Origin: Escherichia coli
GTDB lineage: Bacteria > Pseudomonadota > Gammaproteobacteria > Enterobacterales > Enterobacteriaceae
Reading direction: 5' to 3' (one strand)
DNA length: 64,000 bases
Assembly (NCBI RefSeq): GCF_003790525.1
Contig: NZ_CP033635.1
Shown here: in pieces, positions 9,668 to 45,317 of the stretch
How positions within the stretch are numbered: the first letter of the stretch is position 1
Layout: the number at the start of each line of letters is the position of its first letter
Notes under the pieces: model-generated
Databases searched by the model: none
Seen by the model: the letters and a program-made list of their open reading frames with translations, nothing else
What the model was told of the DNA's origin: nothing
Position numbers and translations under genes: made by a program

Positions 9668-9745
9668 AAATACTCCCGCTATCAACTGACGGTAGTATAA
9701 CGGAAGCAAATCATCTGCAATGCATTAAGCAGCAAGCAAATTGAG

Positions 9746-9792
9746 GATAAAAAAAACCCCCACATCATGTGGGGGAAGACAGGGATGGTGTC
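9746..9792. repeat. attL core (prophage-left copy of the cpxP-terminator repeat)
   Basis: gataaaaaaaacccccacatcatgtgggggaagacagggatggtgtc, identical over 47 bp to 44747..44793. Confidence 0.85.
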
Positions 9793-9840
9793 ACAAAAAA
9801 TCACCTAACCTACTGATATAAATGGATTTATATAAACCAC

Positions 9841-9860
9841 TGTCCACATAGCGTCCACAT
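9841..9860. promoter_or_regulatory. Putative integrase arm-type binding sites (tandem TGTCCACA repeats), left arm
   Basis: tgtccacatagcgtccacat; the same tandem motif recurs at 44646..44664 beside int. TGTCCACA is the reverse complement of the P2 Int arm consensus as recalled. Confidence 0.5.
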
Positions 9861-9891
9861 CGACCATAAATAAAGCCCCTCAACTGAGGGG

Positions 9892-11317
9892 TAATGCCGA
9901 TCAGTTAAGGATCAGTTGACCGATCCAGTGGCTGTGTAAGAATCCGGAAACGCTCACTTGTTTCCGGATTTTTTTATGCACATTGGACAGGCTCTTGATC
10001 TGGTATCCCGTTACGATTCTCTGCGTAACCCACTGACTTCTCTGGGGGATTACCTCGACCCCGAACTCATCTCTCGTTGCCTTGCCGAATCAGGTACTGT
10101 AACGCTACGCAAGCGCCGTCTTCCCCTCGAAATGATGGTCTGGTGTATTGTTGGCATGGCGCTTGAGCGTAAAGAACCTCTTCACCAGATTGTGAATCGC
10201 CTGGACATCATGCTGCCGGGCAATCGCCCCTTCGTTGCCCCCAGTGCCGTTATTCAGGCCCGCCAGCGCCTGGGAAGTGAGGCTGTCCGCCGCGTGTTCA
10301 CGAAAACAGCGCAGCTCTGGCATAACGCCACGCCGCATCCGCACTGGTGCGGCCTGACCCTGCTGGCCATCGATGGTGTGTTCTGGCGCACACCGGATAC
10401 ACCAGAGAACGATGCAGCCTTCCCCCGCCAGACACATGCCGGGAACCCGGCGCTCTACCCGCAGGTCAAAATGGTCTGCCAGATGGAACTGACCAGCCAT
10501 CTGCTGACGGCTGCAGCCTTCGGCACGATGAAGAACAGCGAAAATGAGCTTGCTGAGCAACTTATAGAACAAACCGGCGATAACACTCTGACGTTAATGG
10601 ATAAAGGTTATTACTCACTGGGACTGTTAAATGCCTGGAGCCTGGCGGGAGAACACCGCCACTGGATGATACCTCTCAGAAAGGGAGCGCAATATGAAGA
10701 GATCAGAAAACTGGGTAAAGGCGATCATCTGGTGAAGCTGAAAACCAGCCCGCAGGCACGAAAAAAGTGGCCGGGACTGGGAAATGAAGTGACAGCCCGC
10801 CTGCTGACCGTGACGCGCAAAGGAAAAGTCTGCCATCTGCTGACGTCGATGACGGACGCCATGCGCTTCCCCGGAGGAGAAATGGCGGATCTGTACAGTC
10901 ATCGCTGGGAAATCGAACTGGGATACAGGGAGATAAAACAGACGATGCAACTGAGCAGGCTGACGCTGAGAAGTAAAAAACCGGAGCTTGTGGAGCAAGA
11001 GCTGTGGGGTGTCTTACTGGCTTATAATCTGGTGAGATATCAGATGATTAAAATGGCGGAATATCTGAAAGGTTACTGGCCGAATCAACTGAGTTTCTCA
11101 GAATCATGTGGAATGGTGATGAGAATGCTGATGACATTGCAGGGCGCTTCACCGGGACGTATACCGGAGCTGATGCGCGATCTTGCAAGTATGGGACAAC
11201 TTGTGAAATTACCGACAAGAAGGGAAAGGGCCTTCCCGAGAGTGGTAAAGGAGAGGCCCTGGAAATACCCCACAGCCCCGAAAAAGAGCCAGTCAGTTGC
11301 TTAACTGACTGGCATTA
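9892..11317 (+). mobile_element. IS4 insertion sequence (1426 bp)
   Basis: Terminal inverted repeats taatgccgatcagttaagg / ccttaactgactggcatta (imperfect); flanked by a 13-bp direct duplication ctcaactgagggg at 9879..9891 and 11318..11330; single transposase ORF. Confidence 0.9.
9976..11304 (+). CDS. insG: IS4 transposase (DDE family)
   Basis: 442 aa from ATG 9976 ([40 protein letters not shown]...); ORF-track start at 9958 is a TTG extension. Confidence 0.9.
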
Positions 11318-11342
11318 CTCAACTGAGGGGCTATTTTTGTGA

Positions 11343-11561
11343 TCACATCCACATAATTTGCTGCCCTGACGGCAACGGGTGCGGCCTCACGGCGTGGACT
11401 TCTCCCGGCTTCACGATGTATCTCTGTACCGACTCATAAGTGATGAACGTGGCGCTGCAATTCACGTTCTGGCACTGGTGATAACGCTCTTTTGTCGTGT
11501 CAGTGATATAGCGGCTTGTACGCGCATGTGCGGCATGCTGGCATAAAGGACAATGAAACAT
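11343..11561 (-). CDS. ogr: Late-gene transcription activator Ogr (zinc finger)
   Basis: 72 aa, MFHCPLCQHAAHARTSRYITDTTKERYHQCQNVNCSATF...; four-Cys zinc finger; P2 Ogr length. Confidence 0.9.
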   Translation of the reverse strand: MFHCPLCQHAAHARTSRYITDTTKERYHQCQNVNCSATFITYESVQRYIVKPGEVHAVRPHPLPSGQQIMWM

Positions 11562-11642
11562 CGCGAGCACCTCTTCCGGTTTTGTTGATAGTGCCATTTT
11601 AGTTAAATTATCATTATAAAACAAAAAGATAAACAAAAGACA

Positions 11643-29510: not shown

Positions 29511-30584
29511 TCACGCTCCCGGCTCTGCGGTCGCCCTGGCCGGTGTGGAGAAATCACCGACCTTAATTTTTTCCACCAGACAACCGGCGGCGTAGTCTTC
29601 CACCACGTAATCAATGTTCATTGACTCGTAGTTCTCCACGCGGTCGAGTTTCGGGTTTTCCACAATCACGCGGCGATGGCTGTCATCCATGTAGTAGATG
29701 GACAGGTTTTCCAGCTTCGTGATGAGCATCGCATCCGCCGGGAAGTACGGGACGCGTACCGCTGGCAGGTTGCCGATGCGTTTCTGGCTGATGATGACGT
29801 CAGCGGCCAGCATTTCGCTGTTGTCCTGCTCCTTGTTGACGATGGGAAAATACTTGTCCGCCAGTAGCTGACGTCCCACAATCACCACAAGGTCAGGGTC
29901 TTCCTGATACCACGGCTCAATCAGGTTGTTGGTCGCATCCATCACCAGTGCATCAAGGCTGGCATAATCACCGCCCTTACCCACGCGGATGACCTCAGAG
30001 GTGGTGTGCCCTTCCTCGTCAGTGACCTTGCTCATCACGCGCGCCGGGGCTTCATTGCGGTATTTCTGCAGCCAGCCGACCGCCACATCCTGCAGCATCG
30101 GATTGCTGCTGCGGTCAGAGGTTTCGGCACGCTTCACGCCGTTAAAACCGGCCATGATGAAATCAAGGGACTGGCGTTTGATAATGGCGTTACGGACACG
30201 GAGCTGGAAATCCTGATAACGCGCCCACAGGTCCAGCGTTTTGTAGCGGATATAAAAATCGAAGTTAATCTGGTCGCATTCGTACTTGTTTGACGCCAGC
30301 TTCGAGAAGTCCTTCGGCTGACGCTCGGTGCCACCGGCGGTGTCGGTGGTGCTGGCGATGGAGCCGGTGACACCAATACCAATTTTTTCCCCTTTCATTT
30401 CGCTGACCGGCACAATGTTGATGCGGGTCAGAAAGTCAGAGGACTCCTGCATGGTGTTCATCAGGGTCTGGGTGACCGACGGTTCAACGGTGAATTTTTT
30501 CGACACATCACCGGCGTCGATGCCGTTCAGTTCGGCAACACGGGACAGGTAGGCATTAAATTTAAAGCGGGTTTCCTGGCGCAT
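29511..30584 (-). CDS. N: Major capsid protein N
   Basis: 357 aa, P2 gpN length and position. Confidence 0.9.
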   Translation of the reverse strand: MRQETRFKFNAYLSRVAELNGIDAGDVSKKFTVEPSVTQTLMNTMQESSDFLTRINIVPVSEMKGEKIGIGVTGSIASTTDTAGGTERQPKDFSKLASNKYECDQINFDFYIRYKTLDLWARYQDFQLRVRNAIIKRQSLDFIMAGFNGVKRAETSDRSSNPMLQDVAVGWLQKYRNEAPARVMSKVTDEEGHTTSEVIRVGKGGDYASLDALVMDATNNLIEPWYQEDPDLVVIVGRQLLADKYFPIVNKEQDNSEMLAADVIISQKRIGNLPAVRVPYFPADAMLITKLENLSIYYMDDSHRRVIVENPKLDRVENYESMNIDYVVEDYAAGCLVEKIKVGDFSTPARATAEPGA

Positions 30585-42693: not shown

Positions 42694-42887
42694 TTCCAGC
42701 CCCTCCGGCTTTTCAGAAAGGTCAGAGCCTTTTTTAACGGACTCTGTTTTTTGGTGCGGATAATGATTCCCTTACGCCCCTTACCGTGGGTGATGGTGAA
42801 GTCAATCGCCCTGGGGCTTTCGTTACGCAGTAACTGAGCAATACAACGCGGTTCACTCATAATCACAACCCCATCCACAAAAGCCAT
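42690..42887 (-). CDS. P2 orf78-like small protein
   Basis: 65 aa ORF between cox and B. Confidence 0.5.
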   Translation of the reverse strand: MAFVDGVVIMSEPRCIAQLLRNESPRAIDFTITHGKGRKGIIIRTKKQSPLKKALTFLKSRRGWK

Positions 42888-43135
42888 GCATCACGCTGTT
42901 CAACTGGTCGGTTATAAAACGCCTCTCGTACAGCGCGATTAAACTCTGGAATGAAAACCCACTTCTCACCGACACGAGCGTTCGGCTTACTTGGATCACG
43001 AAGCTCAATAACTGGCAACTTATTCTCTTTTACCATCTTGACTACAGCCGTTTCTGGCTTACCAAGTAACTCTGCAAACTTAACCGTATGTACCGCATCA
43101 ATCGGGTACTGAATCACATAGTCATTGACTTCCAT
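42863..43135 (-). CDS. cox: Cox-like excisionase / early-promoter repressor
   Basis: 90 aa; first gene of the early operon, divergent from C; P2 Cox is about 91 aa. Confidence 0.7.
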   Translation of the reverse strand: MEVNDYVIQYPIDAVHTVKFAELLGKPETAVVKMVKENKLPVIELRDPSKPNARVGEKWVFIPEFNRAVREAFYNRPVEQRDAWLLWMGL

Positions 43136-43287
43136 TGATTAGCCCTTTTTGCTTTCGTGTTACCCTTATTAGATCCAGTCCCTTCTAGGTCGCACCTGTC
43201 CTTTCTAGGGACTGGCTAACACACTCAAAAGGTCACCAATACACAACCTTTTGACGGGAATATAAGTCACCAATAGGTTACTGTCAA
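43136..43287. promoter_or_regulatory. Immunity switch region (divergent C and cox promoters with operator repeats)
   Basis: Intergenic region between divergent C and cox; direct repeats ccagtcccttctagg (43175..43189) and cctgtcctttctaggg (43195..43210). Confidence 0.6.
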
Positions 43288-43581
43288 ATGCAGACATTCG
43301 AAAAACTGAAAGCGATTAGGAAAGCAGAAGGCTTAACACAGGCGAAATTCAGCGAAATTAGCGGGATAGCTCTAGGAACAGTCAAAAATTACGAAAGTGG
43401 GCATAAAGACCCTGGTCTCAGCATCGTTATGCGAGTCACAAATACGCCTTTATTTAAAAAATATACGCTCTGGTTAATGACTGGTGATACGTCACCACAA
43501 GCTGGTCAGATCGCGCCGGCTCTCGCACACATTGGGCAAAAACCAACAGAATCAGACCACTCCGAAAAACAGACTGGTTAA
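43288..43581 (+). CDS. C: Immunity repressor C (HTH)
   Basis: 97 aa, MQTFEKLKAIRKAEGLTQAKFSEISGIALGTVKNYESG...; HTH_XRE-like. Confidence 0.8.
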   Translation: MQTFEKLKAIRKAEGLTQAKFSEISGIALGTVKNYESGHKDPGLSIVMRVTNTPLFKKYTLWLMTGDTSPQAGQIAPALAHIGQKPTESDHSEKQTG

Positions 43582-43650
43582 CACTCTATAAACATTACAT
43601 TTTCACCATTTGTTACCAAGATGGTGAATACAGCGTCAGAGGGCTTTCTT

Positions 43651-44631
43651 ATGTCAATTAAGAAGCTCGATGATGGACGCTATGAAGTGGACATTAGACC
43701 TCGCGGTCGCGACGGAAAACGCATCCGCAGGAAATTTGAAAGAAAAGCTGAGGCTGTAGCATTTGAGCGATACACAATCGCCTACGCCAGCCAGAAAGAA
43801 TGGGCAGGTCAGCGAGCAGATCGCAGAACTTTGAGTGAGTTGCTGAACATCTGGTGGAAATATCACGGGCAAAACCACGAGCATGGAACAAAAGAGTTTA
43901 ATCATCTGCTCAAAACCATCAGCGGCATAGGTGATATACCAGTGAGCCGGATGAGCAAAAGAGCTTTGATGGATTATCGTTCCATGCGACTACGTGATGG
44001 TATCAGTGCCGCAACGATAAACCGTGACATGTACCGATTATCCGGCATGTTCACAAAATTAATTCAATTGGATGAATTTTCCGGGCAACACCCAATTCAC
44101 GGACTGCCGCCACTGGCGGAGGCCAACCCTGAAATGACGTTCCTGGAAAAAGCAGAAATCGAAAAACTGTTAAATGTTTTGGATGGTGATGACTTACTTG
44201 TCGCACTTTTATGTCTGAGCACTGGAGGAAGATGGACGGAAGTTGCCACGCTAAAACCAGCACAGATTACAAATTGCAGGGTTACCTTCCTGAAAACCAA
44301 AAACGGTAAAAAGCGAACCGTGCCGATTTCTGAGGAACTGGAGAAAAAAGTTAAAGAGGAGGCCAGCGCTAAATTATTCAAAGTTGATTATGAGAAGTTT
44401 TGCGGGATTTTACGCAGAGTGAAGCCAGATATACCACCCAATCAGGCAACCCACATCCTGCGGCATACATTCGCAAGCCATTTCATGATGAATGGGGGCA
44501 ATATAATCGCACTGCAACAGATTCTGGGACATGCGAGCATTCAGCAGACGATGGCCTATGCGCACCTTGCGCCTGACTACCTGCAAAATGCCGTCGCGCT
44601 GAATCCTCTAAAAGGCGGAGTGACGTTATAA
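43651..44631 (+). CDS. int: Tyrosine integrase
   Basis: 326 aa from MSIKKLDDGRYEVDIRPRGRDGKRIRRKF...; C-terminal catalytic region ...HILRHTFASHFMMNGGNIIALQQILGHASIQQTMAYAHL; ORF-track start at 43621 is a 10-codon extension. Confidence 0.85.
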   Translation: MSIKKLDDGRYEVDIRPRGRDGKRIRRKFERKAEAVAFERYTIAYASQKEWAGQRADRRTLSELLNIWWKYHGQNHEHGTKEFNHLLKTISGIGDIPVSRMSKRALMDYRSMRLRDGISAATINRDMYRLSGMFTKLIQLDEFSGQHPIHGLPPLAEANPEMTFLEKAEIEKLLNVLDGDDLLVALLCLSTGGRWTEVATLKPAQITNCRVTFLKTKNGKKRTVPISEELEKKVKEEASAKLFKVDYEKFCGILRRVKPDIPPNQATHILRHTFASHFMMNGGNIIALQQILGHASIQQTMAYAHLAPDYLQNAVALNPLKGGVTL

Positions 44632-44645
44632 ATTTCCCTTCTGAG

Positions 44646-44664
44646 TGTCCACATAGTGTCCACA
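44646..44664. promoter_or_regulatory. Putative integrase arm-type binding sites, right arm
   Basis: tgtccacatagtgtccaca, matching the left-arm copy at 9841..9860. Confidence 0.5.
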
Positions 44665-44746
44665 CTCTCAGAACTTTGTAGCCCTTCCAGTCCCTTATAG
44701 GTTTTCTTAAGTTACTGTTTTCTTACGGAAACCGATGTAAGTGATT

Positions 44747-44793
44747 GATAAAAAAAACCCCCACATCATGTGGGGGAAGACAGGGATGGTGTC
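44747..44793. repeat. attR core, identical to attL; carries the cpxP/CpxQ terminator hairpin
   Basis: 47-bp identity with 9746..9792; contains cccccacat-c-atgtggggg next to an A/T run. Confidence 0.85.
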
Positions 44794-44812
44794 TATGGCA
44801 AGGAAAACAGGG
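44750..44812 (-). ncRNA. cpxQ: CpxQ sRNA (processed cpxP 3'UTR) with intrinsic terminator
   Basis: Minus-strand sequence ...uuuuccuugccauagacaccaucccugucuucccccacaugaugugggggUUUUUUUU immediately downstream of the cpxP stop; matches CpxQ as recalled. The 5' end is approximate. Confidence 0.6.
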
Positions 44813-44816
44813 TTTA

Positions 44817-45317
44817 CTACTGGGAACGTGAGTTGCTACTACTCAATAGCTTCAACGATGAACTTTTTTGCCATTGCGTCACGTCGCGCAACTGCTCCAT
44901 TCGTTGTTGATGTTTCTCGTTTAAAACCGCTTGCTGCTCCGGCGTTAACAGGCGATACATTTGGTTGCGGACTTTTGCCATCTCAACCTGACGAGCAATT
45001 TGCTCATTCGCCATTTTTTCTGCCTGTGCGCGCACAGCGTTTTCATCAAAATTTTCTGCGGTGACAAGGCGATGCATTGTCTCCAGTTCGCTAACATTAA
45101 CAGGAGGCTGTTCGTGCCGGGCCTGTTGCATAAGATCTCGCATCTGCTGACGCTGATGTTCGGTTAAACTTATGCCGTCGAACATATGGCTCTGCGTACT
45201 GCGCTGCGTAAGTTCTTCACCCGGATGCCAGTTATCGCCTGAACCGACTTCAGCAGCGTGGCTTAATGAACTGACTGCCAGCGTTGAGGCCATGACGGCA
45301 GCGGTAACTATGCGCAT
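44817..45317 (-). CDS. cpxP: Periplasmic stress adaptor/inhibitor CpxP
   Basis: 166 aa, [34 protein letters not shown]...; LTXXQ motifs. Confidence 0.9.

Follow-up and report, generated by a model that had tools for sequence, protein, structure and literature searches.

Among the systems closest to the locus analyzed here are the Cox operator of coliphage WΦ and the cox-boxes of phage P2. According to papers that cite the original study, WΦ Cox recognizes a 12-nt direct repeat in the Pe-Pc region and not the P2 cox-boxes (PMC5009727, citing Ahlgren-Berg et al. 2009), and it is reported to bind and bend att DNA (Ahlgren-Berg et al. 2009, as cited in PMC5009727, PMC7498355 and PMC11963761). The half-site of WΦ C is TATTGGTGAC, with 34 nt from center to center, as defined by mutagenesis and EMSA (PMC1904263). 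The consensus of the integrase arm-type sites is tgTGGaCa (PMC3448106).

We analyzed a 64,000-nt stretch of Escherichia coli DNA (the window), in which an initial annotation had flagged a 15-bp motif that occurs twice between the divergent C and cox genes and once more beside an att site. We find it very likely that the phage's own Cox protein recognizes each of the three copies as a binding box. Cox boxes are already known for the switch, and for the att arm we strongly infer them.

Results

The prophage and its gene context

Positions 42800-44820 of the window are 99.7% identical in DNA to coliphage WΦ (AY135739, AJ245959). The Cox and C proteins are 100% identical to those of WΦ, Int differs at 2 residues, and the switch differs from that of WΦ by a single substitution, at base 43194 in the spacer separating the two repeats. 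Judged by its sequence, the prophage is WΦ itself, in E. coli. Cox, which is encoded beside the site, matches the Pfam family Phage_Cox (PF10743) with 83.5 bits against a cutoff of 27.5. The prophage adjoins cpxP; the 47-bp att core at its int end has an identical copy at the other prophage end (9746-9792), and the window diverges from WΦ attP at 44794. The gene context that the initial annotation had assumed, with cox, C and the end of int placed as in Table 1, is correct.

We also observed an IS4-family insertion sequence (Pfam Nterm_IS4 and DDE_Tnp_1) within the prophage at about 9892-11320, with an ORF at 9958-11304 (+). The element sits between the P arm with the ogr terminator and ogr itself (ORF 11343-11636, − strand) and breaks the phage matches in two. 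The Int sites of this other arm, at 9841-9859, are intact.

Table 1. Positions of the switch, att arm and gene features in the window.
Feature	Position	Strand	Sequence or remark
cox	42863..43135	−	ORF; 90-aa winged-HTH Cox; represses Pc, excision directionality factor
Pc promoter	43135..43171	+	Lysogenic; transcribes C and int; AJ245959 promoter feature mapped to the window; start near 43171
Motif copy 1 (Cox box repeat 1)	43175-43189	+	CCAGTCCCTTCTAGG; Pc +5 to +19
12-nt core of copy 1	43178-43189	+	GTCCCTTCTAGG; matched to the published 12-nt direct repeat by elimination
Putative degenerate middle box	43187..43197	+	GGTCGCACCTG; one helical turn from each strong repeat
Motif copy 2 (Cox box repeat 2)	43195-43209	+	CCTGTCCTTTCTAGG; 2 mismatches; 20 bp from repeat 1
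Core of copy 2	43198-43209	+	GTCCTTTCTAGG
Inverted partial copy	43207..43215	−	CCAGTCCCT on the − strand; perfect 9-bp dyad with 43175-43183, bracketing the repeats
Dyad 1	43175-43183 with 43207-43215		Perfect over 9 bp; brackets the Cox boxes; begins at Pc +5
Dyad 2	43225-43233 with 43246-43254		Surrounds O2; begins at Pe +1
C operator half-site O2	43232..43241	+	GTCACCAATA (= TATTGGTGAC on the Pe strand); outside the motif family
C operator half-site O1	43266..43275	+	Between Pe −35 and −10
Pe early promoter	43253..43289	−	AJ245959 feature; TTGACA, 17 nt, TATATT; start near 43253
C immunity repressor gene	43288..43581	+	
int, tyrosine integrase	43651..44631	+	
Two Int arm-type sites, P' arm	44646-44653 and 44657-44664	+	TGTCCACA; conserved across seven arms
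Putative weaker arm box	44680..44688	+	AGCCCTTCC; about one helical turn upstream of the third copy
Motif copy 3, att arm	44687-44701	+	CCAGTCCCTTATAGG; 1 mismatch
47-bp att core, int end of prophage	44747..44793	+	

Copies of the motif and their chance expectation

The motif has three copies, all on the + strand, and no other match to the 15-mer at up to 3 mismatches is found in the 64-kb window. The repeats are thus present as they had first been described, at the switch and beside the att arm. The positions given earlier for the two switch copies stand (the second had been taken as a 16-mer extending to 43210); the third copy had been placed at 44688, and its true start is 44687. Together with their flanks, copies 1 and 3 match at 16 of 17 positions (TCCAGTCCCTTMTAGGT).

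At 3 mismatches the test is a modest one, with 0.78 matches expected in the window and 3 or more matches in 6 of 100 shuffles. At no more than 1 mismatch, chance would give 0.005 copies of the 15-mer over the whole window and 4e-6 in the arm, and the observed match between switch and arm was reached by none of 500 arm shuffles. Shorter segments are likewise in excess: GTCCYTTMTAGG has 3 matches (0.5 expected), and the 9-mer CCAGTCCCT has 4 (0.26 expected), a number reached in 0 of 100 shuffles. The fourth exact copy of the CCAGTCCCT 9-mer lies at 30166-30174 (−) in the phage late region; it stands without neighboring copies and is probably a chance occurrence.

The switch repeats and the C operators

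We mapped the promoter features of AJ245959 to the window (Table 1). Their positions agree with the published 82-nt transcript overlap and with the location of O2 at 60 nt from the Pc start, and the Pe sequence is also found in the pEE938 oligonucleotide (PMC1904263). The two repeats (43175-43209) fall between the Pc start (about 43171) and the Pe start (about 43253). They begin 4 nt downstream of the mapped Pc start and span Pc +5 to +39, within the 82-nt overlap.

The Pe-Pc interval contains only two families of direct repeats, the flagged one with 20-bp spacing and the GTCACCAATA pair with 34-bp spacing. Only the first of these, formed by GTCCCTTCTAGG and GTCCTTTCTAGG, is a 12-nt repeat within 43136-43287; the second, with a unit of 10 nt, is the C operator. 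Since one of the two families is the C operator, the flagged repeat is the Cox repeat described for WΦ in the citing literature; the switch repeats are in this sense already known, by way of a secondary citation and elimination.

As an alternative, the initial annotation had read the switch repeats as operators of the C repressor, with a chance match in the att arm. C repressors of the P2 family do bind direct repeats, and the flagged pair, too, is a direct repeat situated between C and cox. The C protein here is, however, identical to WΦ C, whose half-sites, 34 nt apart and spanning Pe, map elsewhere, to the separate GTCACCAATA pair (O2 and O1). The flagged repeats differ from these operators in sequence, are spaced by 20 nt and lie 44-79 nt downstream of the Pe start, and only about 4e-6 copies with at most 1 mismatch would be expected in the arm by chance. 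As the published WΦ C operators are this separate pair, we reject the operator reading, which is extremely improbable.

A search for the P2-type cox-box TTAAA(G/C)NC(A/C) with up to 1 mismatch found none in 43136-43287 or in 44632-44746. We discarded an identity with the P2-type box, as this consensus is absent from both the switch and the arm and WΦ Cox, as relayed by the citing papers, does not bind P2 boxes.

Anatomy of the Cox boxes

Close variants of Cox keep AGTCCYTT without a conserved CTAGG tail of the repeat. On this comparison the true recognition core is probably shorter than 15 bp, at about AGTCCYTT. The trinucleotide GTC recurs at 43178, 43189 and 43198. Its middle occurrence belongs to a GTCGC that is conserved in variants whose Cox is 93-97% identical and that aligns with the AAACCNCTC box of relatives. 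The recurrence of GTC and the conserved, aligned middle GTCGC together suggest three head-to-tail positions, strong, weak and strong, of which the middle one may be a low-specificity Cox position, by analogy with X1.5 of lambda.

In relatives the boxes recur with a 10-11 bp period (for example AAACCACTCAAAACCGTTT), an arrangement typical of directionality factors. The strong repeats here are 20 bp apart and not 10, and a degenerate yet conserved box, GTCGCAC, lies in the middle.

Cox homologues with 80-86% overall identity differ mostly in the stretch of the predicted recognition helix (alignment columns 28-45), which reads PETAVVKMVKEN in WΦ, PKTAVEAMAKAN in SI7 and PKTAVSEMVKAN in L-413C; these differences fit the differing box sequences. 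In P2 Cox, residues T25 and D33 have been indicated as specificity determinants (PMC3936717).

Dyad symmetries in the overlap of the Pe and Pc transcripts

We observed two dyads in the 82-nt overlap of the Pe and Pc transcripts (Table 1), both kept across about 40 unique heteroimmune switch variants through compensatory stem changes. The variants were drawn from the switch regions of loci L001-L094. Conservation was judged from per-sequence folds with shuffles, as an ungapped MAFFT alignment set the 3' stems out of register. The mean fold z of dyad 1 over 39 unique variants is −2.6 in the Pc sense and −2.9 in the Pe sense; that of dyad 2 over 42 unique variants is −3.7 in the Pc sense and −3.3 in the Pe sense. 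The per-sequence folds of these 39 and 42 variants show no detectable strand preference, and a fold test of the att arms revealed no comparable dyad symmetry. As either strand folds about equally, 5' hairpins in the RNA are inseparable from a symmetry at the DNA level, such as an inverted Cox box that seeds bidirectional spreading.

It is possible, if rather doubtful, that the dyads form 5'-terminal RNA stem-loops on both of the opposing transcripts, each lying over the operator of the opposing repressor, and that the balance between the lysogenic and lytic mRNAs, in stability or output, depends on them. If this were true, the flagged motif would be dual-coded, as a protein site and as an RNA stem. 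The dyads leave the assignment of the Cox boxes unchanged.

A stronger form of the same idea holds that the motif is chiefly half of a stem, with 43175-43183 pairing with 43207-43215 in a 5' hairpin of the Pc transcript or in the cox leader, and that the direct repeat is secondary. The perfect 9-bp dyad, the fold of the Pc leader (z = −3.3) and the hairpin potential kept in the 39 variants speak for it, as do the compensatory stem variants CCAGCC/GGCTGG, CCAACC/GGTTGG, CCAGCGC/GCGCTGG and CCAGTCCC/GGGACTGG. It leaves the att copy unexplained, however, as the arms lack dyad symmetry (mean z of +0.6 and −0.3) and yet carry the motif, and it conflicts with the specificity of Cox for a direct repeat as given in the papers that cite the WΦ work. 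The equal folding of both strands fits a fourth Cox box in inverted orientation as well, and the boxes of P2 occur in both orientations. We consider it unlikely that the motif is chiefly a stem half; the stem would more probably supplement the Cox boxes than replace them.

The att arm copy

In the window the int stop is followed by the Int arm-type sites, the third copy, a conserved block and the att core (Table 1). The P2 record has the order int 3' end, P' Int sites, Cox site (74 bp), core, IHF and P Int. The third copy thus occupies the slot equivalent to the annotated P2 Cox protein_bind feature, between the P' Int sites and the core. The initial annotation had placed this copy beside attR. 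It does lie next to the prophage att junction at the right end of the window, but P2 nomenclature names the arm next to int P', which makes the junction B-O-P', in P2 terms attL.

Among seven aligned arms with the same core, the Int sites, the conserved block and the core are constant and the motif segment varies by phage type. The motif is kept in 6 of the 6 fetched loci that include the arm and have a Cox at least 97% identical to that of the window. One of these retentions (L038) comes despite a 560-bp insertion between int and the arm. An insert of about 560 bp with coding potential before the P' Int sites is found in some WΦ-like prophages (L038, 200-760; L044-L051, just past the int stop), where it displaces the att arm from int and leaves the arm itself unchanged.

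Upstream of the third copy we find a putative weaker box, AGCCCTTCC, so placed that CCCTT repeats at a 10-bp interval across this box and the third copy. Its homologue in the arms of L-413C and P37 is the first AAACC box. The abstract of the original WΦ work is said to give Cox a lower affinity for attP than for Pe-Pc, and reportedly describes there a 9-bp repeat with only 5 bp in common with the switch repeat. Such a description is weaker than a 16/17 match, yet it is compatible with one strong box and a weak neighbor. The att copy very probably lies within the interaction of Cox with attP that the citing papers describe, and Cox is predicted to make contact exactly at 44687-44701.

An Int arm-type site or an IHF site is a conceivable identity for the att copy, given that it lies in the att arm, where such sites occur. 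The motif does not contain the tgTGGaCa consensus, though; the Int arm-type sites are separate, the sole match to the IHF consensus in the arm is at 44738-44750, and Int and IHF have no known role at Pe-Pc, where the motif occurs twice. An Int or IHF site at the att copy is hardly credible.

The IHF match itself is perfect (TATCAATCACTTA, − strand). It extends over the left edge of the 47-bp core, at the side nearer to int, and is part of the block ATGTAAGTNATTGAT that is conserved in all arms with this core. The annotated IHF site of P2 is on the opposite side of its core. A search for a strict IHF match near the other junction (9730-9900) found none.

Co-variation of switch and arm across Cox types

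We gathered Cox homologues from phage records and viral contigs. The scan of viral contigs yielded 80 loci, most of which end exactly at the int stop and thus come without an att arm; about a dozen added arm data.

Four Cox types each have their own distinct long match between switch and arm: WΦ (16/17), L-413C (16/18), L086 (18/19) and T5282H (24/28). The matching sequences, TCCAGTCCCTTMTAGGT in WΦ, AAACCACTCMAAACCSTT in L-413C and TTTGAAACGGYTCAGGAAG in L086, lie in the same two slots; the boxes of L-413C are AAACCACTCAAAACCG. For three of the four types, 0 of 500 shuffles reach the long match. Over 13 Cox types the scores of each switch with its own arm sum to 131, against 102 +/- 6 when arms are permuted, and the observed sum was reached in 11 of 100,000 arm permutations. 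This co-variation supports the reading that one protein would recognize both switch and arm.

The initial annotation had suggested a motif comparison across P2-like phages of the same immunity type as a check; the co-variation over 13 Cox types favors Cox sites. The annotation had arrived at the published switch site from the letters alone, and its Cox reading is now carried by the identity with WΦ, the published 12-nt repeat, the P2 slot and the co-variation.

In the ungapped test the match of a switch with its own arm is not significant for SI7, P37, L076, P2 and KpST16. As P2, with its experimentally proven boxes, is among these, the ungapped test lacks sensitivity, and function does not depend on a long match. 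Nor is the co-variation base-perfect: P2_AC1 has AAACCA in the switch and AAACCG in the arm. An apparent A/G compensatory change between the switches and arms of L-413C and P37 did not hold up in P2_AC1.

The long matches could in principle be historical, with the att copy a neutral relic of an old duplication or recombination between switch and arm and Cox acting elsewhere in the arm. A 16/17 match exceeds the need of a single winged-helix protomer, and P2, whose boxes are proven, lacks such a long match. Against this, each of four Cox types has a long match of a different sequence at these two slots, which a relic could produce only by repeated concerted change. The motif is kept in every fetched arm with a WΦ-type Cox, even beside the 560-bp insertion, and the att copy occupies the position of the annotated Cox site of P2. 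A relic is, on this evidence, very unlikely.

Mosaic switches separate the Cox boxes from the C operators. In six loci (L057, L064, L068, L069, L070 and L078) the Cox proteins are 97-100% mutually identical and the box segments 93-100%, with C only 59-94% and the operator segments 44-96% identical. Loci with a Cox 93-97% identical to that of WΦ and a C of only 64-74% (L044-L051) keep GTCCYTT..GTCGC..GTCCTT..GGGACTGG and lose GTCACCAATA. In these mosaics the boxes are alike where Cox is alike, despite divergent C, so the box segment follows cox and not C. The operator segment follows C, which tells further against C operators at the flagged repeats. The mosaics recombine within the switch: C genes and operator segments of as many as five different kinds adjoin near-identical cox genes and Cox-box segments, so the breakpoint lies between the two operator sets.

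Discussion

Cox is a winged-helix recombination directionality factor that doubles as the lytic-side repressor of the switch. The switch has two strong boxes 20 bp apart, on the same helix face, with a putative degenerate middle box, from Pc +5 to +39. In the mechanism that we propose, Cox protomers would bind head to tail one helical turn apart, oligomerize cooperatively and bend the DNA. Bound at the switch, Cox would repress Pc, presumably by occluding RNA polymerase, which would turn off C and int and lock in lytic growth. In the P' arm, one strong box and weaker neighbors with a 10-bp period would occupy the stretch from the Int arm-type sites to the core. By bending the DNA there and acting together with Int, Cox would favor the excisive complex and inhibit re-integration, as described for P2.

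What the analysis adds to existing knowledge is small: it makes explicit that switch box 1 and the arm box match at 16 of 17 positions, and it shows that switch and arm co-vary from one Cox type to the next. For this locus the value lies mainly in a correct annotation of the Cox operator, the C operators, the promoters, the Int arm sites and the att core of a WΦ prophage beside cpxP. Many heteroimmune P2-like phages have a type-specific motif common to switch and att arm, which could serve to predict Cox/Apl specificity from sequence. The mosaics are natural module swaps, in which each operator set moves together with the gene of its protein, the Cox boxes with cox and the C operators with C.

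The nearest described system is the WΦ Cox operator itself (Ahlgren-Berg et al. 2009, as described in citing papers), with which the locus shares the sequence (apart from one spacer substitution), the protein and the imperfect 12-nt direct repeat; compared with that description there is no substantive difference at the switch. Lambda Xis likewise reads two specific direct repeats, X1 and X2, separated by about two turns, and fills a less specific site in the middle, X1.5, cooperatively in a bent microfilament. GTCCCTT / GTCGCAC / GTCCTTT in the window resembles this pattern, and its middle box would be the analogue of X1.5. Xis differs in having no role in the lambda switch. In phage 186, as here, one protein, Apl, acts at direct repeats both at the convergent lytic and lysogenic promoters (pR-pL) and at att, and binds cooperatively; Apl is, however, a sequence outlier among directionality factors, has seven operators at one-turn spacing and works beside a CI/CII immunity system. 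With P2 the locus shares the protein family, Pc repression together with excision, the attP slot between the core and the P' Int sites, oligomerization and bending. The P2 cox-boxes, TTAAA(G/C)NC(A/C), occur in at least 6 copies at Pc, attP and P4 PLL, and their sequence is unrelated to the WΦ motif. The WΦ repeats are fewer and longer than those of P2, and the WΦ site lies just downstream of the Pc start, whereas that of P2 lies over −10/−35.
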